DNA from: a virus
Taxonomy: Duplodnaviria > Caudoviricetes
IMG/VR virus record: IMGVR_UViG_3300026194_000310
Location: 6,125 to 70,124 of that record
DNA length: 64,000 nucleotides
Strand: one strand, 5' to 3'
Shown: positions 12,932 to 63,019 of the stretch, in pieces
Position numbering within the stretch: the first letter of the stretch is position 1
Layout: each line of letters opens with the position of its first letter
Notes under the pieces: model-generated
What the model was told of the DNA's origin: nothing
Databases searched by the model: none
What the model saw: only the letters and a program-made list of their open reading frames with translations
Translations under genes and position numbers: made by a program

Positions 12932-14137
12932 GTGTCAAATAACGGTGTATTAAACAAAAAAACATATGATTCTGTAAAGCTTGGAGAGGTATTAATCTCT
13001 GCCAAAGGTAAAAAGCCAAAATTTGTAGCTTCTGAACCATCAGATGGATGGTTGCCGTATATCAATATTAAAGCTTTTGAACAGCATGTCTTTGATGAAT
13101 ATACAGACGGGGAAAATTGTCTACCATGTGAAGATGGCGATCTACTTATGGTTTGGGATGGTTCTCGTTCAGGAATGGTAGGGAAAGCATATAAGGGTTA
13201 TGTTGGTTCAACTCTTGCAAAAATATCTGTGCCCGGGGTAACAAACGAGTTTTTGTATTATTTTTTGCAGGGCAAATATAGGATACTTAACTCAAAAGTT
13301 AAAGGCACAGGAACTCCACATGTTAACCCGGAAATCCTGGGGAACTTCGATTTTCCTATCATTCCAATGGAAGAACAGCTTCGCATTATTGCCAAAATTG
13401 AGGAGCTCTTTTCCGAATTGGATAAGGGAGTTGAAGCGCTGCAAAAAATGAAGATGCAACTTAAGCTTTACCGGCAGGCAGTGCTTAAGGATGCGTTTGA
13501 TAGATATAAATCTTTTTCAAATATAACTAATTACTTTGATGTATCTGGCGGATTAACTCTAAATTCAAGAAGAAATGTACTTCCAATTAAAATGCCCTAT
13601 TTGAGAGTTGCAAATGTATATTACAATTTTATTGATCTTACGGACATTAAAGAAATCGGTGTAAAAGAAAATGAAATCGATAGGACACTCTTAAAAGAAC
13701 AAGACCTTTTGATTGTTGAAGGCAACGGTAGTAAAGAACAGATTGGCAGGGTTTCTATTTGGAATGGCCAAATCAAACAGTGTTTGCATCAAAATCACAT
13801 TATAAAGGCACGCCCTAATGGCAGTATGCTTTCTAAATTTGCCTTATACTATTTAATGTCAAAAGATGGTCGGAATCAGATCCTTGAAGTTGCTTCTTCA
13901 ACCTCAGGTTTGTACACGCTTAGCATTGGTAAAGTTAAAAATTTACAAGTACCTACATGTTCACTGGAGGAACAAAGAGAGATTATTTCAATAATTGAGA
14001 ATCGGATTTCAGTATGTGAACATATTGAAAAGAGTATTGATGTTGCTGAAATACAGGCTGAAAGCCTGCGCCAAAGCATATTACAGATGGCTTTTGAAGG
14101 AAAACTGGTAACGCATGAGGAGGAAATAAATGTCTGA
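12932..14137 (+). CDS. hsdS: Type I R-M specificity subunit (two TRDs)
   Basis: Two TRD-conserved-region repeats (IPIIPMEEQLRIIAKIEELF; VPTCSLEEQREII...LRQSILQMAFEGKL). Confidence 0.9.
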   Translation: MSNNGVLNKKTYDSVKLGEVLISAKGKKPKFVASEPSDGWLPYINIKAFEQHVFDEYTDGENCLPCEDGDLLMVWDGSRSGMVGKAYKGYVGSTLAKISVPGVTNEFLYYFLQGKYRILNSKVKGTGTPHVNPEILGNFDFPIIPMEEQLRIIAKIEELFSELDKGVEALQKMKMQLKLYRQAVLKDAFDRYKSFSNITNYFDVSGGLTLNSRRNVLPIKMPYLRVANVYYNFIDLTDIKEIGVKENEIDRTLLKEQDLLIVEGNGSKEQIGRVSIWNGQIKQCLHQNHIIKARPNGSMLSKFALYYLMSKDGRNQILEVASSTSGLYTLSIGKVKNLQVPTCSLEEQREIISIIENRISVCEHIEKSIDVAEIQAESLRQSILQMAFEGKLVTHEEEINV

Positions 14138-14693
14138 AAACAATACATCAACAATCATATCCAAGGTTTGGTCCATGTGTGGCGTTCTCTATGATGACGG
14201 CGTTTCCTATGGCGATTATCTGGAGCAGCTTACCTATATGATCTTTCTCAAAATGGCTGATGAGTATTCCCGGCCCCCGTATAACCGCAATCTCGGCATC
14301 CCACAGGGCTATACGTGGGCGGATATGAACAGCCTTTCCGGAGTTGACCTGGAACAGCAATATAAAAGGACGCTGGAGAAGCTAGCGGAGAAACCCGGTA
14401 TCTTAGGCGAAATTTTTACCGGAGCACAGAATAAAATCAGCGAGGCGGCTAAGCTGGCCCGTATCGTCAAAATGATCGATGACGAGAACTGGGTTTCCAT
14501 GTCCACCGATGTCAAAGGGGATATCTATGAGGGCCTGCTTGAGAAAAATGCCGAAGATACAAAGAGTGGAGCCGGACAGTATTTCACCCCCCGTGCGTTG
14601 ATTCAGGCCATGGTAGAATGCCTGCGTCCCGAACCGATGAAAACCATCGCTGAAATTAAGACGCCGTATTTAATACAATTTAAGGTTGCCTGA
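14130..14693 (+). pseudogene. hsdM: Type I R-M methyltransferase, truncated by an insertion at ~14653
   Basis: HsdM N-terminal domain up to GQYFTPRALIQAMVECLRPEPMKTIA; the expected DPxCG motif I and NPPF motif are missing and a foreign 13-aa tail follows. Confidence 0.85.
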
Positions 14694-14698
14694 CCGTA

Positions 14699-14751
14699 AG
14701 GGTTTCGGTTTTGACTTAGGGGTTTCGTTTTAGGCCAGGGGTTTCGTTTTT
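14699..14751 (+). repeat. Three direct repeats AGGG(G)TTTCG(G)TTTT, period 19-20 bp
   Basis: GTTTCG cores at 14702, 14722 and 14741, about 45 bp inside the hsdM junction. Confidence 0.75.
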
Positions 14752-14813
14752 GAATGTATATGTGTCGGTCGAAGATGAGACCGGCGCGTTTTGTATAAAG
14801 AAGAGGTACAGGT

Positions 14814-15002
14814 ATGCCGACAATAACAAAGAAGCAGCTGGCAGATTATGAGCAGCTGTGTAAAGATAGAAATAACGGTCGGATTCTCACGCCGGATGGG
14901 CTTCGGTTTATCTGTGAGGCTTACGATTATGATGCCGAGAAAATAGGAAAACATTTTCTGGAGACTTTGCCGAGGATACTTCAGAAGGAAAATGGAAGGT
15001 GA
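14814..15002 (+). CDS. Hypothetical protein (62 aa), first gene of the cargo operon
   Basis: ORF with a GAGG RBS; its stop overlaps the next start (GTGA). Confidence 0.6.
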   Translation: MPTITKKQLADYEQLCKDRNNGRILTPDGLRFICEAYDYDAEKIGKHFLETLPRILQKENGR

Positions 15003-15586
15003 ACACCATGAGTGAAAGCAAAAAGGATATATCCAAGAAAAAGGATACCTATGTCAAAAAGAAAAAGGACATGAACTTTCAGAGTGTTGAATCTATGCAG
15101 TCTGTCGTTAATGTTGTGAATGAGGCTGCGGAGGCACTAAATGATAAGAATCGCACTATAAGAGAAAGTGCTATTCCAGAAGTGCTGGCCGGTGCGCTGG
15201 GTGCTGGTATTGGTGGAGTGGGTTCCTTTGCAGCGCTTTATGGGCTCGGAGTTGTTGGACTCTCAGCAGCAGGTATTACGTCCGGTTTGGCTACGGCAGG
15301 AGCCCTTGTCGGAGGTGGTATGGTTGCTGGCGTATTTGTGCTCGCTGCTCCGGTAGCCGGTCTCGCTGCTGCAGGCGTTGGTGTTGCCTCTCATCTGAAG
15401 AATAAACAGCTTAGACAGGAAAAAGAGCGTTTATACAAAGAGGCGCTGAAAAAACACGAGGCTATTATTAAGGCTATGAAATCAGAAGCTGATGCAGACA
15501 AGGAACGAATGGATTATCTGCAGAGTCTCAATATTCTGTTACAGCAGGCTATCAAGGATTTGCAACATGATTTAGGAGTTGCATAA
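14999..15586 (+). CDS. Glycine-zipper membrane protein with C-terminal coiled coil
   Basis: About 75-aa Gly/Ala-rich hydrophobic stretch (LAGALGAGIGGVG...AGVGVA) followed by a charged helical tail. Confidence 0.75.
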   Translation: MNTMSESKKDISKKKDTYVKKKKDMNFQSVESMQSVVNVVNEAAEALNDKNRTIRESAIPEVLAGALGAGIGGVGSFAALYGLGVVGLSAAGITSGLATAGALVGGGMVAGVFVLAAPVAGLAAAGVGVASHLKNKQLRQEKERLYKEALKKHEAIIKAMKSEADADKERMDYLQSLNILLQQAIKDLQHDLGVA

Positions 15587-15600
15587 AGTGAGGAGAAGCG

Positions 15601-15999
15601 GTGAGCAAATTCAATTTAAATAAGCTGGCACCCATGCTTGATAAGGCTGGTGACGGTTTGGTAAAGGCGGGGAAAGCAGTCGTTGATGTCGTGAAAGATC
15701 GGAACTTTCAGATAGGCGTTTTGACTGGATTGCCTGCGACAATAAGTGCATTCTTTTTAATCAGAAAATACCAAAAGCAGGCTGAGGAAAAGGAGGAGCT
15801 TTATAAAAAGGCTCTTGCAAAACACAATGCTGTTATAAAGGAACTGGATGCCAAGGCTGAGATGGACAAAGAAAGACAAGATCGGCTTCTTGCTTATGAT
15901 TCCAGATTAAAGAAAGAGATGAGCGGCTTGCAATCAGAGATTCAGGAACTGAAGAATCAGATCGCAGAGCTTGAAAAAAAGAAGGCTGACGATGAGTAA
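15601..15999 (+). CDS. Single-TM coiled-coil protein, partial paralog of the upstream gene
   Basis: IGVLTGLPATISAFFLI hydrophobic segment; shared EKExLYKxALxKHxAxIK...DKER motif. Confidence 0.75.
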   Translation: MSKFNLNKLAPMLDKAGDGLVKAGKAVVDVVKDRNFQIGVLTGLPATISAFFLIRKYQKQAEEKEELYKKALAKHNAVIKELDAKAEMDKERQDRLLAYDSRLKKEMSGLQSEIQELKNQIAELEKKKADDE

Positions 16000-17356
16000 A
16001 TACAAGTATTCTGAAACTGAACAACAGATAAATGATGTTCTAAAATACCAAGATGAGGAGCTTAAGAAGATTAAGGCTACTATGCCTTCAACGACCGAGC
16101 TTGATAAAAGGATTCAGGAAAGTGAAGACTTGCTCCGTATGTTGGGGTATACAGAAATGCCGACGGTACCAAAGCACGATGTAGTAAAAAAGGTAATGGT
16201 GGTACCTTCTTGGGAGCAACTATGCCTTGAAGCGGAAAACTCTGTAGGCACGGGGCATCCGCTTGAATCAATTTTTACAGAAGCAGAGCTGAAGCGCAAC
16301 AGCCAAGAAATCCGGATGCTAAATGCTGAGTATAATCAGTTGCACCATCTGGACAAATATGACATTGCAATCAGTGTTGCAGCTGGTCTGCTTGGAGCGG
16401 CTGTTGATGTTTTGTTGGTAGGCATTCCGCAGAAAACTCCAGATGGGTTAAAAGGTGGGACACTGGCCAACTATGTAAGAGACTGGTTCGATAAGAAATT
16501 TCCTGAAGAGGAAATGGAGAAGTTGGCAAACTCGAAGGTCAGCAAGGTTCCATACGACGCTCAGGATAACCGGAACACTACGCAGTATGTTGACGGGCTT
16601 TCTGCATATTACCATCGCCTGCTTTCTCTTGGTCACGATCCATTGCTTGGATTGATTTTTGGTGTGGCAGATATTCTTACTGGGAGAATGACCACCATTG
16701 ATAAAACCGGAAAGATTGTAGTTCAGGTTATGGAGAATTATGCTGACCGCAAGGAGACAGATGTTTTTGCAGCTATAGCCAAGCAGATCATACATTTCAA
16801 ATCGGATATCACGACATCAATGGGACTACCGGCTCCTATGATGGCACTGTTTAATCTTCTGCAATTTGGGAAAATCGGTGAGTACGAACAGACCATAGCG
16901 GAAATCGTGCAGGGCATGTATTACGAGGGGTATGACTTTATACATTTCTGCACGCTTTCGATTCCGGTAATGATTGTAGAAGTAGTAACCCGGATTGGAT
17001 ATGCCTTCAAGCGCATTAAGGAAGGACATTCTGTAAAAGAGTCAATTCCATTTTCCCTGAACCGCGAAAAGCATCCCAAGCTCGCAACAATGCTGTTTAT
17101 AGGCCACTCGGCTGCAACAGCTGTTAATGCCGGGAAGGTTTATTTTACGCAGAATCCGATGGCAATTAACTATCCGCAGTGGATTGCCTTCGCAAAATAT
17201 TCATATCAACAGTTGAAATGGGTGCTGCTTGACAAGCCAAATGCCAGAGATGCATATGTGCGCGGCATTTTGTATGAAGAACTAAATGAGGTAATTGCTT
17301 CGGTCGATACAACATTTGATGATATGACTGCGGATTACATAGTTGTCTTTGAATAG
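15992..17356 (+). CDS. Hypothetical, probably multi-pass membrane protein (454 aa)
   Basis: Long ORF overlapping the upstream gene; hydrophobic segments IAISVAAGLLGAAVDVLLVGI, LLGLIFGVADIL, FCTLSIPVMIVEVV; YHRLLSLGHDP and HFKSDITTSMGLPAP motifs. Confidence 0.75.
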   Translation: MSKYKYSETEQQINDVLKYQDEELKKIKATMPSTTELDKRIQESEDLLRMLGYTEMPTVPKHDVVKKVMVVPSWEQLCLEAENSVGTGHPLESIFTEAELKRNSQEIRMLNAEYNQLHHLDKYDIAISVAAGLLGAAVDVLLVGIPQKTPDGLKGGTLANYVRDWFDKKFPEEEMEKLANSKVSKVPYDAQDNRNTTQYVDGLSAYYHRLLSLGHDPLLGLIFGVADILTGRMTTIDKTGKIVVQVMENYADRKETDVFAAIAKQIIHFKSDITTSMGLPAPMMALFNLLQFGKIGEYEQTIAEIVQGMYYEGYDFIHFCTLSIPVMIVEVVTRIGYAFKRIKEGHSVKESIPFSLNREKHPKLATMLFIGHSAATAVNAGKVYFTQNPMAINYPQWIAFAKYSYQQLKWVLLDKPNARDAYVRGILYEELNEVIASVDTTFDDMTADYIVVFE

Positions 17357-17368
17357 CGAGTTGATTTT

Positions 17369-17878
17369 ATGGGAATGGGATATGGCTGGGAGTGCCCAGA
17401 TTGTAAATACAGTTTTGGCGCAAATGTTGGTGTTGGTTTTTTATATCCTAAAGTTTATGAGGAAACCATCGAAGCAGCAAAAAACGGAGAGTTTGGTAAT
17501 GAACTCAAGGAGTTATTAAGCGCTCATCCAGATGCCGCGATTGATCCAGAGGTCGTTATTTTGCAATGCTGCGATTGCGGTGAGTATGATTCCAGACCGA
17601 TTTTGAATGCGTATGTACCGAAAGAGGATAAGCAACGACCGCCAAAAGAAAAAGGAAGAAGGTGGTCAGTAGCTTTTCCGTTTGAGGACGCTTCATATGT
17701 AACCAGTTACGACATGCAGGAATATTATGATCTGTATGCGGAGTATGACCACAGATGTGAAAAATGTGGCGGCAAAATGACTGTTGTCCCGGAATCAAGC
17801 TATGAAAAGAAAAATGGCATGATTTGCCCTAAATGCAAAAAGCCACTTAAGTTGGTTGATCTTATTAATTGGGATTAG
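17369..17878 (+). CDS. Hypothetical zinc-binding protein with four CxxC motifs
   Basis: CPDC, CCDC, CEKC and CPKC. Confidence 0.7.
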   Translation: MGMGYGWECPDCKYSFGANVGVGFLYPKVYEETIEAAKNGEFGNELKELLSAHPDAAIDPEVVILQCCDCGEYDSRPILNAYVPKEDKQRPPKEKGRRWSVAFPFEDASYVTSYDMQEYYDLYAEYDHRCEKCGGKMTVVPESSYEKKNGMICPKCKKPLKLVDLINWD

Positions 17879-17887
17879 TTGAAAACG

Positions 17888-17934
17888 AAAAAAGGCTCCC
17901 CAGTCACCGGAGAAATCCAGTGGTGAGGAGCTTT
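17888..17934. terminator. Bidirectional terminator between convergent cargo and recombinase genes
   Basis: AAAAAAGGCTCC...GGAGCTTT hairpin with a GAAA loop. Confidence 0.65.
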
Positions 17935-17936
17935 CC

Positions 17937-19526
17937 TTATGCCTTGATGGTCTGGCCGTTGCGGAAGGTTACGCTGATGTCGCCCTCGCCATTGACCGTG
18001 AGGTAATCCGTCAGGGCGTTAAATGCGTCAAGGGAGAACGCGGTCAGGGTTTCCGGCAGTTTCTCAAAGGCGGCAAGGAAATCCTCGACGCTGCCTTTTT
18101 GCGACTGCGTCTGGTTGATCTGTTCGTTCAAATCCTCGATGCGGGTCTTGAGCGACTCGTACCGGGTGGTCAGGTCATCGTACTTTTTTTGGTATGCCTT
18201 CTGGTCGAGAGCAACGTGGGCGTTTTCGTAGATGTTCTGCTGGACGGCATCGGAAACAACCTGCGCTTCTTCCAGCAGTTTGTCGCGCTCGGCTTCCTGC
18301 TCTGTGGTGTCAAAGAGGAGCGCCATCATCTCGCGCCCGTTGGCGATGACCGCATCCTTTGTGGCCAGCAGCTGGTTTGCCGCCGACAGGAAGGCATCCT
18401 GAATCTGCTCGTCCGTCAGGTGCGGAGTGCAGCAGTGCTTGCCGCCATCATACTTGTGATTGCATTGCCAGATCGTCCGGCGGTATTTGTCGGTCGAGTG
18501 CCAGACCTTTGAGCCGTACCAGCTTCCACACTGGCCGCACCGGATTTTGCTGGAGAAGGGATGTACGCCGCTGTGGTACTTCTTGCCTTTGCCGCGCTTG
18601 GCCATTTCCCGCTGAACCATGTCGAATTTTTCAGGCGGGATGATTGCCTCGTGGTTTCCCTCCACATAGTATTGCGGGATTTCACCTTCGTTCTTCTTTT
18701 GCTTCTTGGTTAGGTAATCGACCGTGAAGCACTTCTGCAGCAGGGCATCGCCTTTGTACTTCTCATTGCTGAGGATGCTCTTGACTGTGGAAATGCTCCA
18801 TTTATCCTTGCCGCCCGGTGTCTTGATGCCGTCGTCGGTGAGCTTCTGTGCGATGCCGTGGTAGGTCGTGCCCTGCAGGAACATATCATAAATGCTCCGG
18901 ACGACCTTGGCCTGCTCCGGATTCACCACCAGCTCACCGTTTGCGCCTCTGTCGTAGCCGAGGAACCGGTTGAATGGGATCGTGACCTTTCCGTCTGCAA
19001 AGCGCTTTCTCTGTCCCCATGTGCAGTTCTCGGAAATGCTGCGGCTTTCCTCCTGCGCCAGCGAGCTCATGATGGTAATAAGCAGCTCGCCCTTGCCGTC
19101 GAAAGTCCAGATGTTTTCTTTTTCAAAATAGCACTCGACGCCTTTTTCCTTGAGCTTCCGGATGGTAGTCAGGCTATCCACGGTGTTGCGGGCAAAGCGG
19201 CTGACGCTCTTGGTGACGATCAGGTCAATGCGACCGGCCAGCGCATCCGCGACCATTCTCTTGAAGCCCTCACGGCGCTTGGTGCTGGTGCCGGTGATGC
19301 CTTCGTCGGTGTAGACGTCCACGAACTCCCAGTCGTCCCGGCTCCTGATGTAGTTGGTGTAATAATCGATCTGCGCCTCGTAGCTGGTGAACTGATCGTC
19401 GTGATCTGTTGAGACGCGGGCGTACCCAGCCACCCGCCGCTTTTTCTGCTCCGTGATGGGAGAAGCAGTGAAGCGCGTCAGCGTGGCCGGGATCGTCTTT
19501 ACCTTTTTGCCTTCGTTGATGCCCAA
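17937..19526 (-). CDS. Large serine recombinase
   Basis: RVAGYARVSTD, ITKSVSRFARN, FLGYD, zinc ribbon CGQCG...WQC. Confidence 0.92.
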   Translation of the reverse strand: MGINEGKKVKTIPATLTRFTASPITEQKKRRVAGYARVSTDHDDQFTSYEAQIDYYTNYIRSRDDWEFVDVYTDEGITGTSTKRREGFKRMVADALAGRIDLIVTKSVSRFARNTVDSLTTIRKLKEKGVECYFEKENIWTFDGKGELLITIMSSLAQEESRSISENCTWGQRKRFADGKVTIPFNRFLGYDRGANGELVVNPEQAKVVRSIYDMFLQGTTYHGIAQKLTDDGIKTPGGKDKWSISTVKSILSNEKYKGDALLQKCFTVDYLTKKQKKNEGEIPQYYVEGNHEAIIPPEKFDMVQREMAKRGKGKKYHSGVHPFSSKIRCGQCGSWYGSKVWHSTDKYRRTIWQCNHKYDGGKHCCTPHLTDEQIQDAFLSAANQLLATKDAVIANGREMMALLFDTTEQEAERDKLLEEAQVVSDAVQQNIYENAHVALDQKAYQKKYDDLTTRYESLKTRIEDLNEQINQTQSQKGSVEDFLAAFEKLPETLTAFSLDAFNALTDYLTVNGEGDISVTFRNGQTIKA

Positions 19527-21289
19527 TATTTCTCACTCCTTATCTTTTTCATGGTCTCGCTCATTTTCTGGCGACGCTCCTCGGTGAAGCTGGCCTTGAT
19601 GGCCTCGCCTTGTTTCTTTTTCCGTTCCTCTGTCCATGCAGGCATCCGGCGCTTGATGCTGTATTCCATGCTGACCTCATGCCCATCGTAGAAGCAGAAG
19701 GTGATGTGTCCGCCCGGCGCGATGGTGATGTGGTCGATTTCCTTTAGGAAAACAGCCTCGTCAAGCTCCTGCTGGCCAAGAGCCTGAGCGGTCAGTTCCC
19801 GGAGCGTGTCCTCATGGATGCAGTTATTGCTGCAGGTGTTCGTTGTAGCGCAGACGAAAAGGTGGTACTTTTCGCCGGAGGCTTTCGTTCTGGTCTGCCT
19901 GCGGTAGTTGTTGCCGCAATCGGCACACTTGATCTTGCTGGTAAAGCAGGTCACGTCGTCACGCTTCATGGCATGGTTCCGGCGGTAGGAGGATGCCTTC
20001 TTCCGGGCTTCCGGAGTCCATGCATCCTTCTTTGCCGTGCTCACCCATGTGAGGGTTTTCTCTGTGCCGTCCGCCATGTGAAAATTGAGGATGCCCTGCT
20101 CCGGAACCGTGATCACCTCGACCTGTTCCGCAAAGGCATCCTCGTCAAATTCCTCAAGGCCAAGTGCCTCGGCGCATTTCTGCCGGAGAATGTATTCCGG
20201 GATCTCCATCGCCTTGCACTTGCCGTTTTTCGTCTTGCTGGAACCGCAGACCCAACCGACCAGCTGATCGCCGAGCTGTGAGACCTTTGCCCGGTTCTTA
20301 CGGGTGTTGCGAACGTAGCTCTTGCCGCATTTCTCACACTTGATTTTGCTGGTGAAGCAGGTGATGTTCAGGCTCTTGTTGGCAAGAGCACCGAGCTCCT
20401 TCCGTCTGGCCATCTCGCTTTGCACATACTGGAAGGTCTCCATATCGATGATGGGCTCGTGGGTGTCCTCGACATAGTATTGTTTCAGCTCGCCGTGGTT
20501 CTTTTTACGCTTCTTGCTGATCGGGTCTGCGATGTATTCCTTCTGCAGGAGCATGTTACCGGTGTAGGTGATGTTGGAAAGCACCACCTTGATATTGGAA
20601 TCCACCCAGCGGCAGCCTTCGCGAGTCGTGATGCCCTCGGCGGCAAATTCCCGCTCTGTCTCAAGGCGGGACTTCCCATCAAGGAAGTTCTGGTAGATGC
20701 GCTTTACGATGGCGGCTTCCTCCGGAACGATGACCAGCTGGTCGCCTTCCCAGCGGTATCCGAATATCCTGAAGTGCCCGTTCGGGATTCCACGCTCCAT
20801 GCGCTTGCGAACTCCCCATTTTACATTGTTGCTGATGCTTTCTGATTCTGATTGCGCGAAAGAGGCCAGAAGTGTCAGCATGACTTCGCCGTCGCCGGAG
20901 AGGCTGTCGATGTTTTCCTTCTCAAACCGGACGCTGATACCCAGCTCCTTTAGGTGCCGGACGGTCTCTAAGAGGTCTACGGTGTTGCGGGCAAAACGGG
21001 AGATGCTCTTACAGAGAACAATGTCGATCTTGCCAGCGTCGCAGTCGGCAATCAGCCGCTTGAACTCATCACGCTTCTTGGCGATGGTGCCTGTGATGGC
21101 TTCATCAGCATAGACGCCGACATATTCCCACTCCGGGTTCTTCTGAATAAGCTCCGAGTAGTAGCTCACCTGAGAGGAGAGGGAATGGTGGAGCCGCTCG
21201 GTTTCCATTGACACGCGGGCGTAGGCTGCGACCTTTTTTCTGGTCGGCAGTGCTGGTATCTGCGGCTCTATCTTCGTGATTTTCGCCAT
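19499..21289 (-). CDS. Large serine recombinase with two zinc-ribbon repeats
   Basis: VAAYARVS, KSISRFARN; two FTSKIKC..CG repeats. Confidence 0.92.
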   Translation of the reverse strand: MAKITKIEPQIPALPTRKKVAAYARVSMETERLHHSLSSQVSYYSELIQKNPEWEYVGVYADEAITGTIAKKRDEFKRLIADCDAGKIDIVLCKSISRFARNTVDLLETVRHLKELGISVRFEKENIDSLSGDGEVMLTLLASFAQSESESISNNVKWGVRKRMERGIPNGHFRIFGYRWEGDQLVIVPEEAAIVKRIYQNFLDGKSRLETEREFAAEGITTREGCRWVDSNIKVVLSNITYTGNMLLQKEYIADPISKKRKKNHGELKQYYVEDTHEPIIDMETFQYVQSEMARRKELGALANKSLNITCFTSKIKCEKCGKSYVRNTRKNRAKVSQLGDQLVGWVCGSSKTKNGKCKAMEIPEYILRQKCAEALGLEEFDEDAFAEQVEVITVPEQGILNFHMADGTEKTLTWVSTAKKDAWTPEARKKASSYRRNHAMKRDDVTCFTSKIKCADCGNNYRRQTRTKASGEKYHLFVCATTNTCSNNCIHEDTLRELTAQALGQQELDEAVFLKEIDHITIAPGGHITFCFYDGHEVSMEYSIKRRMPAWTEERKKKQGEAIKASFTEERRQKMSETMKKIRSEKYWASTKAKR

Positions 21290-21311
21290 TTGAATCACTC
21301 CTTTCCGGTAC

Positions 21312-22051: not shown

Positions 22052-23524
22052 TTACTTCACGCGGATTTTCCAGCCGGTGATGATAAGGTTGACATTCTTG
22101 ATGAGCGTCGGATTGAGCTTCTGGATCGCTGCCACGCTTGTTCCGTACTTTCGAGCAATGGCAGAGAGCGTGTCGCCGGATTTCACGGTGTACCAGACAG
22201 CAGCAGAGGCAGGCTTCTTCAATAGCTCATTGACCTTGGCTTGAACGGCTGAGTAGTCATATCCAGCAGCGGTCAGGCGGTTCTTGCGGTCGGTGCCGTT
22301 TCCCCACTTGCCGTCGATGACTTCCTTGGCAAGCTCGTCCACGTTTTTCTTAGGCGCAGCTTCCGGTGTAGGCTTGCTATCTTCAGGGCTCTCCGCATAC
22401 TTCAGCACGCCATAGCCACGGATATACTTGCCGCCGACCTTAAGCGTTCGTCTGCTGACAGAGTCGCTCTTGTTGCCCTCAATGACGGTGATGGTGCTGC
22501 CGGAGACAGTCTCAACGATACCGACATGATCCGGCCAGCCGGTATTGTCACCGGAACCGGAGTCCTGCCAGTCATAGAAAATGACATCTCCGGGCTTCGG
22601 AACATAGGAGTCGTTTTCATTCCATGCGCCGAGCTTCTGGAAAAGCTCAATCATCTGGCCGCAGCCGCACTCGGTAGGGATGATCCTTGTCAGGCCGCAC
22701 TTGATGGAAACCGCCGAGACGAAGGTCGCGCACCATGCGTCCGTGTATTTTACCTTATATCCTCTGGCGAGAGGCTTGTGGCTGTTGTAGACATCGATAA
22801 TCTCTCTGTGGCTGCCGTCCGCCTCGTTCTTTCCAAGCCATGCTCTGGCCTGAGCGATGATCTGATCTCTCTCGGAACTTACGACAGGCGCAGGCTTGTT
22901 TTCCTTCGTATAGCCGTTGAAGCCTCCGGTCTTGATGATGGACGGATAATCGATGTAGCCATAGTCCAGATCCACGTTACCGGAGATGCCATCGACCTTG
23001 CCCTTGGAAGAATACTGCCAGATGCCGTATTCGCCCTTATAGGAGCACTTGCTGGCGTACTGCGCTACCCAGTGCGCGTAGTCCGTGAGCTTGCTATCGT
23101 CCATCCGCTCCTTGAAACCAGAAACAACGGAGCCGTAGATGCCGACGAAGTATCCAGCAGCTTCCATTGTCTCGCAGAAAGCGATGGTGGCCTCTGTGAT
23201 CCCGGCTTTGGCAGAGGCAGGCTGTGCCTCGTTATCCATGTAGACCGGGTACTCCAGCTGCTTGCCTTTGAGGAGCTGAATGAAACGCTCAGCATCTGCT
23301 TTTCCTGCAGCAGCCGTCACGCAGTCTTTCCCGACGAAGTAATATGCGCCGATAGGGATACCGGCAGCCTTGGCTCCCTTGTAGTTTGCTTCCCACTTGC
23401 TATCGGTATAGGTTCCTGCATCCGAGCCGCCAGCCTTGATGATGGCAAATTCGATGCCAGCGGCTTTGACCTTGTTCCAGTCTATCGTTCCCTGCCAGTG
23501 GGATACGTCAATTCCTTTAATCAT
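22052..23524 (-). CDS. Endolysin: GH25 muramidase, CHAP, Cpl-7-like and LysM domains
   Basis: GIDVSHWQG, YMDNE, AWCATFVS/HVGIVE/IEGN, DELAKEVIDGKWGNG, YTVKSGDTLSAIA. Confidence 0.9.
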   Translation of the reverse strand: MIKGIDVSHWQGTIDWNKVKAAGIEFAIIKAGGSDAGTYTDSKWEANYKGAKAAGIPIGAYYFVGKDCVTAAAGKADAERFIQLLKGKQLEYPVYMDNEAQPASAKAGITEATIAFCETMEAAGYFVGIYGSVVSGFKERMDDSKLTDYAHWVAQYASKCSYKGEYGIWQYSSKGKVDGISGNVDLDYGYIDYPSIIKTGGFNGYTKENKPAPVVSSERDQIIAQARAWLGKNEADGSHREIIDVYNSHKPLARGYKVKYTDAWCATFVSAVSIKCGLTRIIPTECGCGQMIELFQKLGAWNENDSYVPKPGDVIFYDWQDSGSGDNTGWPDHVGIVETVSGSTITVIEGNKSDSVSRRTLKVGGKYIRGYGVLKYAESPEDSKPTPEAAPKKNVDELAKEVIDGKWGNGTDRKNRLTAAGYDYSAVQAKVNELLKKPASAAVWYTVKSGDTLSAIARKYGTSVAAIQKLNPTLIKNVNLIITGWKIRVK

Positions 23525-56456: not shown

Positions 56457-56904
56457 GAGATTTCCTCCATTCGATTTGCATGGAATGGAGAAAACCTCGT
56501 AGGCAGCCGCCAGATGGCAATAGAAACCTAACCGCAGTCCTTATGGAGTCCTCTCCATTCCGGTCTGCAGCTTCCCGCTCAATAGGCAGCTGTCTGTGTT
56601 CAGTTGTACCGTCATTTACTGTTGAGCCATCGGTGATCAGTCGATGCAGTATTTGACGGGCTTATATCACGCCGCTTTCGCAAAGATATCAACGCCACAG
56701 AAAATTTACTTTTGCGAACGCCAAATAATATTGATTATTGCGAAACATCGTGATACAATATGTAGTGTCCGCCTATGGCTACATTTTTCAGTGCCTTCTC
56801 GGCCTCGCTACATCTAAAAGTCTAAGGGAAACGAGGCGAGAAGTATTTGATGTGGAATTCGAGTCAAATTCGAGTGGATTTCGAATTAGAAAGGAGAGAT
56901 CGCA

Positions 56905-58116
56905 GTGACAGAGCTTTGTTTCGCTGAATTTGCCAAATGCTTACAAAACGCTATGCAGCCGCCCAATGATGACAAGGATGTTGTTGAGCTTTTATTAGGC
57001 TGGATTACGGATATGCCAAGCGTGGTGGACAAAAAAGGCAATCCGATTCATCTGGCACCGTCACTGATCAGCGATCTTCTTAACCGGAAAGTAGATGTCC
57101 CGAAGGCGATAAAGAATGCCTGCACGACTCGAAAAATGATTACTGAGGCAAAGAAGCATTGCGCAGACATGGTGATCCCTTATCTAAATCCTGTGGTAAG
57201 TGACGACATGTTTGAGGCTATGGGTAGGGCGGTTGAGGACGATGAAATAATTGCAGCTAAAAAGAAAAAGGAACTGGCCACGTTTCTCGAAAATGAGAAA
57301 GAGGCCGAGTTCCTTGGTCAGTTGCTGACATACGTTATAAACAGAGAGAACAGGATATCGAATACGCCAGTGGTGAGCGAAGATATACCATTGCTGGCTG
57401 AGGCTGATTATGAGTGCCCAATATGCCATGCTCCGCTTGTAGAATATGTTAAGAACACACCGGTGAAAAAGTATGAGGTTGTGAACATATTCCCCAGCGA
57501 TATTTCTGGATGCGCATCCGAGTTTGCGCTGATACCGAGACCGAAGCGTATAGATGCTCCAGCAAATAGAATCGCTTTGTGCCGTGACCATGCTGAGGAA
57601 TATGAGATCGAGCCCACGTCGGAGGATTATGCCCAGCTCCGAGAAATGAAGGATCGGTTGTCGGCAGCATATTCTTTGCGAGTAGATATTAACGACGCTG
57701 CTCTCGAAGACGAAATTCAAAGTGTGCTGTATGGCTTGGCGGGTATAACCGACGATACAGAGCTGGAGGAGCTCCCATTGGATGCATTGCGGTTAGACCA
57801 GAAAATTCTTCCGGAGAACCACCTATTGAAGAATGATGAGATGACTCGTGTCCTTCGCTATTACAATTATATCGATGAGCTGTTCTCAGCTATGGACAGA
57901 GATGGAACGGGTGATTTTGATTTAATTGCTTCTGAAGTTGAAACGACATATAAGAAACTGGATAACGGTCAGCTTTCTCAAGACGAAATCGTAAATGCGC
58001 TGGCGGAGTGGATCAAAAACAAATCAGGCGTAGGTAGTAAAAATATGCGAGCATGCCACATTGTAGTCGCGTATTTTATACAGAACTGTGAGGTGTTCCG
58101 TGAAATTTCCAAGTAA
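56905..58116 (+). CDS. ABC-three-component/Lamassu-like effector (LmuA-like) with degenerate HNH domain
   Basis: CPIC...VVNIFP...NRIALCRDH HNH-like core; C-terminal VAYFIQNCEVF. Confidence 0.65.
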   Translation: MTELCFAEFAKCLQNAMQPPNDDKDVVELLLGWITDMPSVVDKKGNPIHLAPSLISDLLNRKVDVPKAIKNACTTRKMITEAKKHCADMVIPYLNPVVSDDMFEAMGRAVEDDEIIAAKKKKELATFLENEKEAEFLGQLLTYVINRENRISNTPVVSEDIPLLAEADYECPICHAPLVEYVKNTPVKKYEVVNIFPSDISGCASEFALIPRPKRIDAPANRIALCRDHAEEYEIEPTSEDYAQLREMKDRLSAAYSLRVDINDAALEDEIQSVLYGLAGITDDTELEELPLDALRLDQKILPENHLLKNDEMTRVLRYYNYIDELFSAMDRDGTGDFDLIASEVETTYKKLDNGQLSQDEIVNALAEWIKNKSGVGSKNMRACHIVVAYFIQNCEVFREISK

Positions 58117-58327
58117 GGTGACGCCTTATCAGGCGAGCATATTAGCAAAGTTTCCAATGGTGTTAAGCTACTTGGAGAATGAGGACTTAAGACCGGATGA
58201 GTTGTATAAAAAAGTGAAATCCAAGGTCTCAGATGTCGGTGAGTTCTTAGAGATTCTGGACTGCCTTTACGCTTTGGGAAAGATAGAACTATTTGAGGAA
58301 GGAGGTATGCTGCACTATGTTGGTTGA
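58100..58327 (+). CDS. ABC-three-component middle component (LmuC-like)
   Basis: Small ORF overlapping both neighbours: KFPSKVTPYQASILAKF...LDCLYALGKI. Confidence 0.65.
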   Translation: MKFPSKVTPYQASILAKFPMVLSYLENEDLRPDELYKKVKSKVSDVGEFLEILDCLYALGKIELFEEGGMLHYVG

Positions 58328-59969
58328 AGTAATGTGTGATGAGTTCAAAGATCATGGAAAGCCACGTGGACGCATATCTCTCAAGCCGGGATTGAATACC
58401 GTAATGGGAAGCGCCTCCGGCTCGAACTCTATTGGCAAGTCTACATTCCTTATGGTTATCGACTTCATATTTGGTGGAGATGACTATGTGGAGAAATTGA
58501 CCGATGTACAGACTGAGGTCGGAGAACATAGAATCTGTTTCGCATTCGAATTTCCTGATGGAAAACATTATTTTTACCGCTCCAATGTGGACTATAAAAA
58601 TGTCCAGAAGTGCGATAAGGATTATCAGCCGGTAGAAGGTGGTCTGATTTCTTTAAATCAATACCTGTTGTTTTTACAGACTCACTACGATATGGATCTG
58701 GCTGGTCTTACTTTCAGGAATGCTATTGGCAGATCCATGCGAGTATATAAAAGAGAAACGCTTGACGAGGAACATCCGCTGCATCAGGCAAAACAGGAGA
58801 CGGCAAAGTCTGCGATAGAGGGCTTGTTGAAACTGACTGATTTATACTCTGGCATTGAAGCGCAGTCCAAAATCACGACTGAAGCCAAGGATAAATACAC
58901 GACATTTAAGAAGGCACAAAAATACCAGTATATTCCGTTTGTTACGAAACAATCTGATTACGATAAGAATGAGACTCGTATCGCGGAACTTACCGAGCAG
59001 GCGGAGGAGCTGGCAAGGAAGAGCTCAGGCGGATTATTAGACTTGAATTCGATGCAGGCAGAGCAGCTTTCAATCCTGCAAGGAAAACTATCGAATTTTA
59101 AGAGGCAAAGATCCCGCCTGCTTTCTCAGCTAAGAGCAATTCGTGTTGACAGAGATCTGGGTAAGAAGGGATTTAAGCGCAATTACGATGACCTTCTTCG
59201 CTTTTTCCCGGAGGTCGATCTTCAGCGGATAGAAGCCATCGAAGGATTCCACAAGCAGCTGGCCGGGATCTTAAAGAAGGAGTTTTCCGAGACAGAAGAA
59301 AATATGCAGGCCGCGCTTGATTTGATCGAAGCGGAAATGAAGCAGATTGAGGCTGACATTTCTCAAATGGCCAAGACGACTGATTTGTCGAAGGTGGTAC
59401 TTGAGCAGTATGCCGCGATAGACAAGGAGCTGAAAACACTCCGGGCGGCTAATGAGAATTATATGAAGACAACACAGCTTTCTGAAGTCGCTAAGGCATA
59501 TGAAGCCGAGTTGAATCGGCTCGTCGTTGAGCAGATAGCAATCATGCAGCAGGAAATAAATTCTGAGATGTTTGATATCAACAATACGATATATTCCGGT
59601 AAAAAGACCGCTCCTACTCTTACGATTACGGATGCATCTCACTATATATTCTTCACACCGAAAGACGGAGGAACCGGAGCGCAGTACAAGGGCTTGGTCG
59701 TGTTCGACTTGGCTATGCTGACACTTACAAGGTTACCGGCCATTGCTCATGACTCTGTAATGTTGAAGCATATCGAGGACGATGCGATTGAGAAAATTTT
59801 GGAATTATATGCGGGTACATCGAAGCAGGTTTTTATTGCTATGGATAAAGAAGGATCGTACACAAAGAAATCGCAGGAAATTATGGAAGCAAGCAAAGTC
59901 CTGCAGCTGAGTCCCGGCGAGGGAGCACTGTTTGGACGCACTTGGAATGATGTGGAGGTAGATCAATAA
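58317..59969 (+). CDS. SMC-like ABC ATPase, DUF2326-like (LmuB-like)
   Basis: NSIGKSTFL Walker A, long coiled coil, GGTGAQYK signature, IAHDS Walker B. Confidence 0.8.
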   Translation: MLVEVMCDEFKDHGKPRGRISLKPGLNTVMGSASGSNSIGKSTFLMVIDFIFGGDDYVEKLTDVQTEVGEHRICFAFEFPDGKHYFYRSNVDYKNVQKCDKDYQPVEGGLISLNQYLLFLQTHYDMDLAGLTFRNAIGRSMRVYKRETLDEEHPLHQAKQETAKSAIEGLLKLTDLYSGIEAQSKITTEAKDKYTTFKKAQKYQYIPFVTKQSDYDKNETRIAELTEQAEELARKSSGGLLDLNSMQAEQLSILQGKLSNFKRQRSRLLSQLRAIRVDRDLGKKGFKRNYDDLLRFFPEVDLQRIEAIEGFHKQLAGILKKEFSETEENMQAALDLIEAEMKQIEADISQMAKTTDLSKVVLEQYAAIDKELKTLRAANENYMKTTQLSEVAKAYEAELNRLVVEQIAIMQQEINSEMFDINNTIYSGKKTAPTLTITDASHYIFFTPKDGGTGAQYKGLVVFDLAMLTLTRLPAIAHDSVMLKHIEDDAIEKILELYAGTSKQVFIAMDKEGSYTKKSQEIMEASKVLQLSPGEGALFGRTWNDVEVDQ

Positions 59970-59996
59970 CTGATGAAGACAACACAGGAGGCAGTT

Positions 59997-60227
59997 ATGC
60001 GTTTTAGTTACAATAAACTTTTTAAGTTGCTGATCGATAAGGGTATAAAGAAAAAGGAGCTCTGCGAGATGGCTGAGATAAGCGCTACATCGATAGCGAA
60101 ACTTGGTCACGGAGGCAATGTCAATTCTGAGGTCTTGCTGAAGATCTGTAACGCACTGAATTGTGATGTCGGCGACATCATGGAATTTGTGCGTGACGAC
60201 CCCGAAGAAGAAACTGACAAAGATTGA
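59997..60227 (+). CDS. XRE/Cro-C1 HTH regulator upstream of hsdM
   Basis: SYNKLFKLLIDKGI...SIAKLG...ICNALNCDVGDIME. Confidence 0.85.
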   Translation: MRFSYNKLFKLLIDKGIKKKELCEMAEISATSIAKLGHGGNVNSEVLLKICNALNCDVGDIMEFVRDDPEEETDKD

Positions 60228-60244
60228 AAAGCGAGGTAAAAGCA

Positions 60245-61816
60245 ATGGCTAAAGCAGATAACAAAAAGCCCGTCAGCATGGAGGAATCCCTCTGGCGCTC
60301 GGCGGATAAACTGCGCGGTTCAGTAGAACCGTCAGAATATAAGCATGTGGTACTCAGCCTGATATTCCTGAAATACGCAAGCGACCGGTTTGAGGAGCAG
60401 CGCAGGAAGATTATCGCTGATGGACATGAGAAGTTCGTGGACATGAAGGCGTTCTATACGCAGGATAATGTCTTCTATCTCCCGGAGGAAACACGCTGGT
60501 CGTATATCATGGAACATGCCAAGCAGAATGATATTGCTCTGCTGATTGATACTGCGCTTTATACGATTGAGAAGAACAACGAGCAGCTGAAGGGAGCACT
60601 TCCGGACAACTACTATTCCAGACTGAATCTGGACACCTCGAAGCTTGCTTCTTTGCTGGATGTTATTGACGGTATCGAGCTGACCGCCGACAAGGAGCAG
60701 GATGTCATCGGAAGGGTCTATGAGTATTTTCTCAGCAAATTTGCCTTGAAGGAAGGTAAAGGCAAGGGAGAATTCTATACGCCGAAGTCCATCGTCAACC
60801 TAATCGCGGAGCTGCTTGAGCCTTATTCGGGCATCCTCTATGATCCCTGTTGCGGTTCTGGGGGCATGTTCGTACAGTCTATACGATTTGTCGAGGCGCA
60901 CGCCGGAAACAAGAAGAACGTGTCCATCTACGGACAGGAACTGACTAATACGACATATAAGCTGGCAAAGATGAATCTTGCCATCCGTGGCATTGCCGCG
61001 AATCTTGGCGAGCAGGCTGCTGATACATTTATGAACGATCAACACAAAGATCTGAAGGCAGACTTCATCATGGCCAATCCGCCCTTCAATCAGAAGGCAT
61101 GGCGTGCAGAAAGCGAGCTGACCGATGATCCACGCTGGGAAGGCTACGATGTTCCACCGACGAGTAATGCGAACTACGGCTGGATTCTGAATATCGTATC
61201 GAAGCTGTCGCAGAACGGCATAGCCGGATTTCTCTTGGCAAACGGGGCGCTTTCAGATAGTGGTACTGAGCTTTCTATCCGGCAGCGGCTCATTGAAAAT
61301 AATCTGGTTGAGGCCATTATCATCTTGCCGAGGAACCTGTTTTATACAACAGATATCAGTGTGACGCTATGGGTTCTGAACAAGAATAAGAAGGCACGCA
61401 CCGTAGAGCAAAACGGCAAATTGAAGAAATACAGAAACCGTGAAAGAGAGATTCTCTTCATGGATCTTCGTCAGATGGGCAGTCCGTATGAAAAGAAGTA
61501 TATCGAGCTGACTGAGGAAGATAGGAAAAAGGTCGCCGCTGTATTCCATGCATGGCAGCAGGAGGGATACGAAGAAAACTATCAGAATATCCCAGAGTTC
61601 TGCTACAGCGCATCCTATGATGAGGTGAAAGAAAAAGGATTCACGCTTGTTCCGAGCCGGTACATTGAGTTTGTGAATCGCGACGAGAATATAGACTTTG
61701 ATTCAAAAATGTCCCAGCTACAGATGGAGCTCACCGATCTCCTGAAGCAGGAGGAAGAATCAAAGAAGGATTTGCTGGGCGTGTTTAAGGAGCTGGGCTA
61801 TGAGATCAAATTATAA
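60245..61816 (+). CDS. hsdM: Type I R-M methyltransferase (intact)
   Basis: GEFYTP, YDPCCGSGG motif I, MANPPF motif IV. Confidence 0.93.
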   Translation: MAKADNKKPVSMEESLWRSADKLRGSVEPSEYKHVVLSLIFLKYASDRFEEQRRKIIADGHEKFVDMKAFYTQDNVFYLPEETRWSYIMEHAKQNDIALLIDTALYTIEKNNEQLKGALPDNYYSRLNLDTSKLASLLDVIDGIELTADKEQDVIGRVYEYFLSKFALKEGKGKGEFYTPKSIVNLIAELLEPYSGILYDPCCGSGGMFVQSIRFVEAHAGNKKNVSIYGQELTNTTYKLAKMNLAIRGIAANLGEQAADTFMNDQHKDLKADFIMANPPFNQKAWRAESELTDDPRWEGYDVPPTSNANYGWILNIVSKLSQNGIAGFLLANGALSDSGTELSIRQRLIENNLVEAIIILPRNLFYTTDISVTLWVLNKNKKARTVEQNGKLKKYRNREREILFMDLRQMGSPYEKKYIELTEEDRKKVAAVFHAWQQEGYEENYQNIPEFCYSASYDEVKEKGFTLVPSRYIEFVNRDENIDFDSKMSQLQMELTDLLKQEEESKKDLLGVFKELGYEIKL

Positions 61817-62324
61817 GCAGCTTGGAGAGTTCATCCGGCAGGTTGATGTGAGAAACACAGAAGGGAAAGAAGAAAATCTTCTGGGTGTATCGGTTCAGAA
61901 ACTGTTTATTCCTTCTATCGCTAATACTGTCGGGACTGACTTCAGCAAATATAAGGTTGTTAAGCGCGGGCAGTTTACCTACATCCCGGATACCTCGCGC
62001 CGAGGTGACAAGATTGGTATCGCTTTGCTGGAAGACTATGATGAAGGCCTTGTCAGTAATGTATATACGGTTTTTGAAGTTGTCGATACGCACAAGCTGA
62101 TCCCGGAGTATCTCATGCTATGGTTCAGCCGACCGGAATTTGACCGGTATGCAAGATATAAATCCCACGGCAGTGTCAGGGAGGTTCTTGACTGGGATGA
62201 GATGTGCAAGGTGGAACTTCCGGTTCCGTCTTATGAAGAACAATTAGAGATTGTAAAGAACTACCGGACAATCTCGGAAAGGATCGTATTAAAACAGAAG
62301 ATAAATGATAATTTAGCGGCTTGA
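61800..62324 (+). CDS. hsdS: HsdS N-terminal half (single TRD), ends at the inversion repeat
   Basis: One TRD plus PSYEEQLEIV...KQKINDNL, then a stop. Confidence 0.85.
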   Translation: MRSNYKQLGEFIRQVDVRNTEGKEENLLGVSVQKLFIPSIANTVGTDFSKYKVVKRGQFTYIPDTSRRGDKIGIALLEDYDEGLVSNVYTVFEVVDTHKLIPEYLMLWFSRPEFDRYARYKSHGSVREVLDWDEMCKVELPVPSYEEQLEIVKNYRTISERIVLKQKINDNLAA

Positions 62325-62935
62325 TAGAATTGCGGTAATTGTCTCTTGCAATTGTTTAAGCAACTCAATCTCCTCAGTATGTGTTTTCATCTGTTCAAGA
62401 GCCAATGAACCGACCTGTTCAAACGCTTCGAGTGATTCTTTTGTCGGCTTTTGCATTGGGAATGAAGCCAGTTCTTCGCCAGACACACGTTGTCTGCCGC
62501 TTGAACCATTCATAAATTGCAACGCAAAAGTCACGAACTTAGAATTTCGTATGAGGAAGTAATAAAAGCACGACGGCATATCATCCTTTGACGCAAAGAC
62601 TATGTACTCAGTAGAGCCAAAAGCAACTTCTCCGTCATTAAGAATGTTTATGTATGCAGCTTTTCCGTTTTCCAGACAAGGTGTAATTCGTGCAATAAGG
62701 GTGTCGCCATTTTTGAAGCGAACACCACCGTTATATGGTTTTATTGTATCTCCTGTCGGGATACAGCCGTTAGTCGGCAAGGTTGCCATATCAAAGCAAC
62801 GAGCCATTTGACCTTTGGAAAGTTGGCGAACAGGATTAACTGTGGCAATATCAGCTAAAGTGCAATCGTTCTCAGTACCGCAGAAGAAAAGATTGTCAAA
62901 ATACGCTTGTGCCGTCGCTTCTAAATTATCATTTA
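62302..62935. repeat. 15-bp inverted repeats TAAATGATAATTTAG flanking an invertible hsdS segment
   Basis: Plus-strand copy at 62302-62316; exact reverse complement at 62921-62935. Confidence 0.85.
62313..62935 (-). CDS. hsdS: Inverted HsdS C-terminal half (TRD2)
   Basis: Open frame from the repeat: NDNLEATAQAYFDNLFF...ARITPCLENGK...GSSGRQRV...ILSSR*. Confidence 0.8.
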
Positions 62936-63019
62936 GCTGAAACCCTCTGCAGTGGCGAGGGTGAACAATAGAACCGCCGCTGGGTGTCGTTCTCTTGAAT
63001 ACAAAAAAGGAGAAACGAC

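Follow-up and report, generated by a model that had tools for sequence, protein, structure and literature searches.

The Bunzi defence system has been validated by experiment (Millman et al. 2022, bioRxiv 10.1101/2022.05.11.491447). Its BnzA protein has been described with a TerB domain, transmembrane (TM) helices and a lipid-binding domain, and a role in membrane surveillance has been suggested (bioRxiv 10.1101/2022.05.11.491447). Membrane surveillance has also been proposed for two other TerB-containing defence proteins, SngA of Shango and DinB of Dionysus, which the TerB domain links to Bunzi (bioRxiv 10.1101/2025.09.30.679545). No mechanistic follow-up on BnzA or BnzB was found in a literature search. 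Canonical Bunzi loci recovered from genomes of the Lactobacillales consist of a BnzA of 557-628 amino acids (aa) followed by a BnzB of ~500 aa. The locus described here is an operon of five genes in a 64,000-nucleotide stretch (positions 6,125 to 70,124 of virus record IMGVR_UViG_3300026194_000310), hereafter the window; the source record is classed as a provirus in IMG/VR. The operon had been predicted from the DNA letters to be uncharacterised. It is instead a variant of a published defence system because one of its genes encodes a clear homolog of BnzB, and it is probably best described as an elaborated Bunzi variant without TerB, carried as lysogenic-conversion cargo by a temperate phage-like element.

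Open reading frame (ORF) calls place five genes on the plus strand between 14814 and 17878. They are co-oriented and tightly spaced or overlapping, just as the original prediction had them:

14651..14813, plus strand: left end of the element and operon leader; L003, L004 and ~10 further junctions have this end sequence next to other host flanks
14814..15002, plus strand: ORF1, 62 aa, preceded by a GAGG Shine-Dalgarno sequence; soluble, family-less, lineage-specific accessory gene
14999..15586, plus strand: ORF2, 195 aa from a GTG start; short BnzA-like glycine-zipper membrane protein, core component 1
15601..15999, plus strand: ORF3, 132 aa from a GTG start after GAGGAG; optional 'middle-slot' component, partial paralog of ORF2
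15992..17356, plus strand: ORF4, 454 aa from an ATG start; BnzB-family protein, core component 2
17369..17878, plus strand: ORF5, 169 aa with four CxxC motifs (double zinc ribbon); rare accessory gene
17896..17914: GC-rich hairpin between the convergent operon and recombinase genes, scored as a minus-strand terminator

From ORF1 to ORF5, successive genes are separated by a 4-nt overlap or 5-nt gap (depending on the start of ORF2), a 14-nt gap, an 8-nt overlap and a 12-nt gap, and four of the five have credible Shine-Dalgarno sequences. For ORF2 the ATG at 15008 (192 aa), which follows GGAAGGTG, is more likely to be the start than the GTG. ORF4 likely begins at the ATG at 15992, its homologs being likewise 454 aa long; the alternative TTG at 15971 would give 461 aa. 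The hairpin had been taken for a single terminator ending the operon. It scores for the minus strand, that is, for the recombinase gene, and viewed on the plus strand it is preceded by an A-tract and followed by no T-tract.

ORF4 carries the assignment to Bunzi. It had been left without a family, yet its match to the PADLOC BnzB profile (PDLC03834) has E=3.4e-68 and covers profile positions 28-499 of 504. With canonical BnzB it aligns from end to end at 25% identity (BLASTP, E=2e-25). Profile and pairwise alignments thus show ORF4 to be a BnzB-family protein. A search of 1.84 billion representative sequences returned 1014 relatives at E<=0.001. Among 55 diverse full-length members of the family D189, H208, H215, G224, H268, D272, P282 and M309 are invariant, and R209, G214, D216, P217, S271, G278 and P280 are conserved in at least 90%. 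The two stretches picked out earlier as 'enzyme-like motifs' turn out to be the most conserved blocks of the whole family in these 55 sequences. Twelve polar positions (D124, D139, D189, H208, H215, D227, H268, S271, D272, D315, E330 and R334) are identical between the ORF4 family and four canonical BnzB proteins.

Hydropathy analysis of ORF4 gives a strongly hydrophobic helix at residues 123-147 and a moderately hydrophobic one at 314-335. An AlphaFold2 model built from the 55-sequence alignment is mostly helical, with a predicted local distance difference test (pLDDT) score of 93.5 and a predicted template-modelling (pTM) score of 0.85; the alignment was needed as input, as a run on the single sequence gave a pLDDT of 36.8 and was unusable. 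A Foldseek search of the model against the PDB found nothing at E<=0.001, and a PDB profile search with the sequence found nothing below E=0.07. The best VIA-align match among 48,161 chains (Z 8.2) was a designed helical protein aligned over 100 residues, which is within helical-bundle noise. At one locus (L010, 6001-7362) a BnzB-like gene beside HsdR- and HsdM-like genes is split into ORFs of 163 and 280 aa and is a probable pseudogene.

The apparent relationship of ORF2 to BnzA is confined to the membrane segment, a compositionally biased region. The PADLOC BnzA profile (PDLC03833) matches ORF2 with 20 bits and E=5e-5 over positions 249-405 of 544 only, and BLASTP aligns ORF2 with residues 271-371 of a canonical 557-aa BnzA (E=1e-5), which comprise the pre-membrane helix and the glycine zipper. 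In ORF2 itself hydropathy marks a 70-residue Gly/Ala-rich hydrophobic stretch at residues 60-133, with 19 Gly, 18 Ala and several GxxxG motifs; beyond it lie a juxtamembrane EKERLYKEALKKHEAII helix and a coiled-coil tail. No Pfam family scores above its cut-off with ORF2, the Gly-zipper families included. The profile comparison gave no counterpart in ORF2 of BnzA profile positions 1-248, and no other BnzA was found in the record. None of the five ORFs has a Pfam match to TerB; Pfam misses TerB in a canonical BnzA too, and the absence of the TerB-type part was therefore judged by length and profile coverage. On one viral contig (L016, 4625-6004) a glycine-zipper protein of 459 aa has an N-terminal ADP-ribosylglycohydrolase domain (Pfam, E=1.5e-34) in the place occupied by the TerB-type part of canonical BnzA. 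It seems from this that BnzA-like proteins can exchange their N-terminal sensor or enzyme module.

ORF3 has a single hydrophobic segment (residues 36-54 by hydropathy) and a coiled coil. The proposal that it is a diverged paralog of ORF2 stands up well, the two proteins being 43% identical in a stretch of 53 aa located right behind their hydrophobic segments (BLASTP, E=3e-11). ORF3 does not align to BnzA. It belongs to Pfam DUF6779 (PF20570; 34.6 bits against a cut-off of 28.1, residues 37-130), a family without known function; coiled coil accounts for most of the match, and the same family is listed, precomputed, on identical copies of ORF3. For ORF1, ORF2, ORF3 and ORF5 PHROGs and NCBIfam returned only coiled-coil or zinc-ribbon noise.

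Which of the five genes belong together was examined at 80 loci of different species, found with a 12-sequence alignment and encoding ORF4 homologs of 63-88% identity. The species include Lachnospiraceae, Erysipelotrichaceae, the Streptococcus mitis group, Enterococcus, Veillonella and others. An ORF2 homolog lies directly upstream of the BnzB-like gene at 75 of the 80, and three of the other five end at a contig edge. These ORF2 homologs are 69-96% identical (mean column identity 75%), and ORF2 is even more conserved than ORF4. The pair, which is translationally coupled, is also adjacent in 21 viral loci, and a drop in the identity of the BnzB-like protein to 33% has not separated the two genes. 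In one natural fusion (P0157, 619 aa) an ORF2-like N-terminal part (E=1e-12) is followed by the BnzB domain; in the part that aligns with the glycine zipper this protein is charged and far less hydrophobic, and one may ask whether the zipper has to span the membrane.

The two core genes abut at 45 of the 80 loci, and some 30 loci have a gap of 250-500 nt with a small gene in it; overall, the middle slot is occupied in ~37% of loci. The middle genes form one divergent family of 96-148 aa with a common architecture: an N-terminal amphipathic part, a hydrophobic helix, a basic stretch, the motif E(K)xxLYxxAxxKHxAxIxxL that they have in common with ORF2, and an acidic tail. Truncated or frameshifted copies occur even in the closest relatives (L032, L033, L037, L038). 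A BnzB tree with 92 rows has at least nine changes in the state of the slot, and well-supported branches force at least five of them. Since the slot is often empty or decayed and keeps switching state, ORF3 is an optional paralogous subunit, repeatedly gained and lost. A core of three genes had been proposed. The co-occurrence check links only ORF2 and ORF4; ORF3 is optional, and ORF1 and ORF5 are limited to close relatives. Judged by this pattern, the minimal conserved unit is a glycine-zipper protein of ~190 aa and a protein of ~454 aa.

The pair moves widely among Bacillota on phages and islands, often beside restriction-modification (R-M) or bacteriophage exclusion (BREX) genes. No serine recombinase was present in the 5-kb flanks of 68 of the 80 loci, those of the Streptococcus mitis group for example; L129/L130, next to type I R-M, are a further case of the pair without one. 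The identical ORF4 protein was found in 224 blocks of a public assembly collection, a wastewater metagenome among them, and metagenome-assembled genomes from gut and rumen contain relatives; in gut Bacillota, therefore, the module probably matters for the dynamics between phage and host.

ORF1 and ORF5 are by their distribution lineage-specific extras outside the conserved core. ORF1 has no match in Pfam, PADLOC, PHROGs, NCBIfam or the ESM Atlas, and its homologs are confined to L003 and L004 (100% identity), L005 (58%) and one partial match among the 80 species loci. ORF5, with the motifs CPDC, CCDC, CEKC and CPKC, has weak zinc-ribbon matches in Pfam and NCBIfam and nothing useful in the ESM Atlas. 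Only nine relatives were found in 5.8 billion proteins, and none of the 80 species loci carries it. One copy, 67% identical, comes after a Bunzi-like pair of two genes next to a type I R-M system (L129/L130). More distant relatives (41-46% identity; L126-L128, L131) lie in metal-transport operons, directly after a gene for a Mn/Zn ABC-3 permease or after those for a heavy-metal (Cu) P-type ATPase and a CsoR-type repressor. These contexts suggest that the ORF5 family is a metal-binding protein that may have been recruited into the operon. Other copies of the identical operon have ORF5 split after ~28 codons by an insertion of ~3.2 kb (L004 7482-10683; L146, L148, L150), which carries a MarR-like helix-turn-helix protein and a MatE efflux pump.

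The window falls into three blocks by GC content, ~0.45 up to 18 kb, ~0.55 from 18 to 56.5 kb and ~0.45 thereafter. The first holds HsdR, HsdS, a truncated HsdM and the operon; the second holds two large serine recombinases, an endolysin and phage genes. Nearly all ORFs between 17.9 and 56.5 kb are on the minus strand, which bears out the earlier statement that the operon is transcribed against the phage genes, and the serine recombinase genes are convergent with it. The features outside the operon are as follows:

14130..14693, plus strand: truncated host hsdM, cut after residue 174, right before motif I, and reading into the element
17937..21298, minus strand: two large serine recombinases, 529 and 599 aa, with Resolvase, Recombinase and Zn_ribbon_recom domains
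22052-23524, strand opposite to the operon: GH25/CHAP/LysM endolysin of the phage lysis region, ~4 kb from the operon
56905-58116: ABC-3C protein CTD11, in the low-GC right block
58293-59969: DUF2326 protein, in the low-GC right block
60224-62324: second HsdM/HsdS, the intact HsdM at 60224-61816
63020 onwards: tyrosine recombinase, in the low-GC right block

Identity with two other viral contigs (L003 and L004) starts exactly at 14651, and the three have different left flanks. Because the same end meets differing flanks, the operon must lie inside a mobile element, between its left end and the recombinases. A place between the element end and the recombinases is typical for phage cargo genes. 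Homologous recombinase pairs flank a Bunzi-like pair in at least 12 viral loci. The low-GC block from 56500 to 64000 may be further cargo or a host island. A tblastn search of the window found no C-terminal fragment of HsdM (the 3' part of hsdM), and neither an inverted copy of the left arm nor a copy of the right arm of a related element, in G003, was found there; the element may extend past 64000 or be rearranged. Just inside the element end, at 14697-14755, are three tandem direct repeats of ~20 nt with a consensus of about TAGGGGTTTCGTTTT (TAAGGGTTTCGGTTTTGACT and variants), and after them a hairpin at 14760-14789; a related element (L007) has similar GGGGTGTCG repeats. Repeats and hairpin could be binding sites of the recombinase or of a recombination directionality factor, or operators of the cargo operon.

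The left end of the element is set in a methyltransferase gene. The truncated hsdM retains HsdM_N and the first 50 positions of N6_Mtase (Pfam) and reads on into the element-encoded tail EIKTPYLIQFKVA*; alignment to the intact HsdM (60224-61816) puts the break just ahead of the YDP of the latter. The crossover core, a GA common to the junctions, is at 14652-14653. Exact-match scans for the element end and look-ups of the identical ORF4 yielded ~15 distinct left junctions. In at least 11 of them the host sequence next to the element encodes the N-terminal portion of an N6-adenine methyltransferase that ends just before the D/E of motif I, (D/E)PxCGxG. The targets comprise several different hsdM genes, pglX downstream of brxC, and a YTSP-type methylase, and the truncated methyltransferases all continue into the same EIKTPYLIQFKVA* tail (L003, L134, L136-L145, L146-L150, L007/L031). 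The related element in G003 splits pglX, the 3' part of which resumes at DPCMGSAHF ~61 kb away. As the insertion truncates its methyltransferase gene, lysogeny would inactivate the R-M or BREX system of the host.

What the operon does can be approached from its kin and its company. Judged on homology and gene context, a membrane-acting anti-phage or superinfection-exclusion module is the most likely reading. A type I R-M system lies directly to the left, with ABC-3C and a second type I R-M system to the right; elsewhere, the Bunzi-like pair has a type I R-M system (L129/L130) or BrxC/PglX (L003 and L006) as its neighbour. Much of the interpretation in the original prediction survives: a cargo operon at a prophage end, made up of membrane and coiled-coil proteins, with an anti-phage role as the best reading. 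The comparison with pore-formers and the three-gene core do not.

A working scheme can be proposed for such a module. ORF2 would form oligomers in the membrane by means of its glycine zipper and its coiled coil, and ORF4 would sense infection, or act on the membrane or a small substrate, via its invariant His/Asp/Ser site and hydrophobic helices. On infection the pair might then compromise the membrane, leading to abortive infection or superinfection exclusion and so protecting the lysogen population. ORF3, as a mini-paralog with the juxtamembrane helix of ORF2, could co-assemble with ORF2 or compete for ORF4 and thereby act as a tuning subunit; ORF1 and ORF5 would be dispensable local add-ons. 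A bolder version, for which we see only a rather small chance, makes BnzB-like proteins membrane-associated, metal-dependent enzymes or sensors of a new fold, with the glycine-zipper protein as pore partner and TerB dispensable; clade-specific mini-paralogs would serve as decoy or gating subunits that tune the trigger, and the carrier phage, by entering the motif-I codons of methyltransferase genes, would swap the R-M or BREX system of its host for a defence of its own.

Several points weigh against reading the operon as a TerB-less Bunzi variant with a membrane-acting anti-phage function. The match of ORF2 to BnzA is weak at 20 bits and depends on a low-complexity Gly/Ala-rich segment; for this reason PADLOC and DefenseFinder would probably miss the system. 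The active site of ORF4 is deduced from conservation alone because the protein has no recognisable enzyme fold, and its embedding in the membrane is putative. The TerB-less form is known from genes alone. The GC content of the operon (0.44, against 0.55 in the phage body) fits acquired cargo and is silent on function.

Since the operon sits in a prophage, it might serve the phage life cycle, as a holin/antiholin-like device for lysis timing, as a spanin-like component or as a block to DNA injection directed at kin only. Both ORF2 and ORF3 are small coiled-coil membrane proteins, and ORF3 has weak PHROG and NCBIfam matches (E ~5e-4) to Rz-like spanins and LysB. These scores are nevertheless at coiled-coil level and far under the family cut-offs (20.1 bits on TIGR03495 against a cut-off of 92.75; PHROG spanin matches at E>=5e-4), and an identity of ORF3 as spanin or LysB was rejected. 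Moreover, the phage has its own lysis region at 22052-23524 on the other strand, the operon is convergent to all the phage genes, and the pair occurs at many loci whose 5-kb flanks hold no serine recombinase. A role in the phage life cycle is improbable.

Glycine-zipper peptides commonly form membrane-damaging oligomers. On this general ground the module could instead be one of toxin and immunity, addiction or competition, in which a glycine-zipper membrane toxin stabilises the element or kills competitors while ORF4 or ORF3 acts as antidote. Tight gene coupling and travel on mobile elements suit such a module, and a partial paralog such as ORF3 could be a dominant-negative antidote. Against this, searches of Pfam, PADLOC, PHROGs and NCBIfam linked none of the five ORFs to a family for secretion or bacteriocin processing, ORF4 is much larger and more conserved than typical antitoxins and has an enzyme-like invariant site, and the homologous Bunzi system has been validated as anti-phage. 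We regard a toxin-immunity module as quite improbable, and in mechanism it overlaps with abortive infection. A Ter-like module for membrane or metal stress, not chiefly anti-phage, could draw on the TerB-type domain of canonical BnzA, the metal-transport operons around distant ORF5 relatives and invariant BnzB His and Asp residues that could bind metal, but it is very improbable given that the variant here is without exactly the TerB part, that ORF5 is missing from nearly all loci and that the neighbours are defence and mobile-element genes, not genes of metal homeostasis.

If the operon is indeed a Bunzi variant, several consequences follow. The only idea on offer for Bunzi, TerB-based 'membrane surveillance', rests on a domain that is missing from this widespread short form. 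H208, H215, H268, S271 and D272, together with several Asp residues, are direct targets for mutagenesis, and the optional paralog and the natural fusion provide handles on subunit interactions. The integration site offers a temperate element a way to disable host R-M or BREX upon integration.

Comparison with known systems places the locus closest to Bunzi. Along its full length ORF4 is homologous to BnzB and has the invariant polar residues of the latter, the apparent counterpart of ORF2 is the glycine-zipper membrane segment of BnzA, and the A-like gene is coupled to the B-like gene directly downstream in a setting of defence islands and mobile elements. It differs in that ORF2 has 195 aa instead of ~550-630 and is without the N-terminal half (the TerB-type part) and the last ~140 profile positions, that ORF4 is only ~25% identical to canonical BnzB, and that extra genes are present: one for 62 aa before the pair, an optional one for a 132-aa TM/coiled-coil protein within it and, rarely, one for a double zinc ribbon after it. 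Shango and Dionysus are set apart by their TerB domain. As the five proteins here have none, TerB-type membrane surveillance cannot explain the operon.

Stretches rich in (G/A/S)xxxG are typical of tightly packed, oligomerising helices, and the long hydrophobic stretch of this kind in ORF2 recalls the glycine-zipper pore and toxin proteins; unlike these, ORF2 falls below the cut-offs of the Gly-zipper Pfam families, and a pore role is putative. With the alpha pore-formers Hbl, Nhe, ClyA and XaxAB, to which the original prediction had likened the operon, it shares only the general theme of hydrophobic hairpin and coiled coil. An identity of ORF2 as an alpha pore-forming toxin was rejected, its score on NF033928 (alpha-xenorhabdolysin A, XaxA, in NCBIfam) being 19.1 bits against a cut-off of 125, and the match of the ORF4 model to HblL1 is weak (Foldseek, E=1.3).

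Insertion into hsdM by integrative and conjugative elements (ICEs) with serine recombinases is already known (Ambroset et al. 2016, PMC4701971; Tn1806, PMC3055811), whereas neither of these papers reports a phage-like element that targets motif I in different methyltransferase families. The streptococcal ICEs resemble the element here in having several large serine recombinases and in disrupting hsdM, and so provide a precedent for the insertion site. They carry recombinase triplets, whereas this element is phage-like and has two recombinases. Unlike the ICEs, its relatives also enter pglX and further genes for N6-adenine methyltransferases, and in every case the insertion is at the first residue of motif I.

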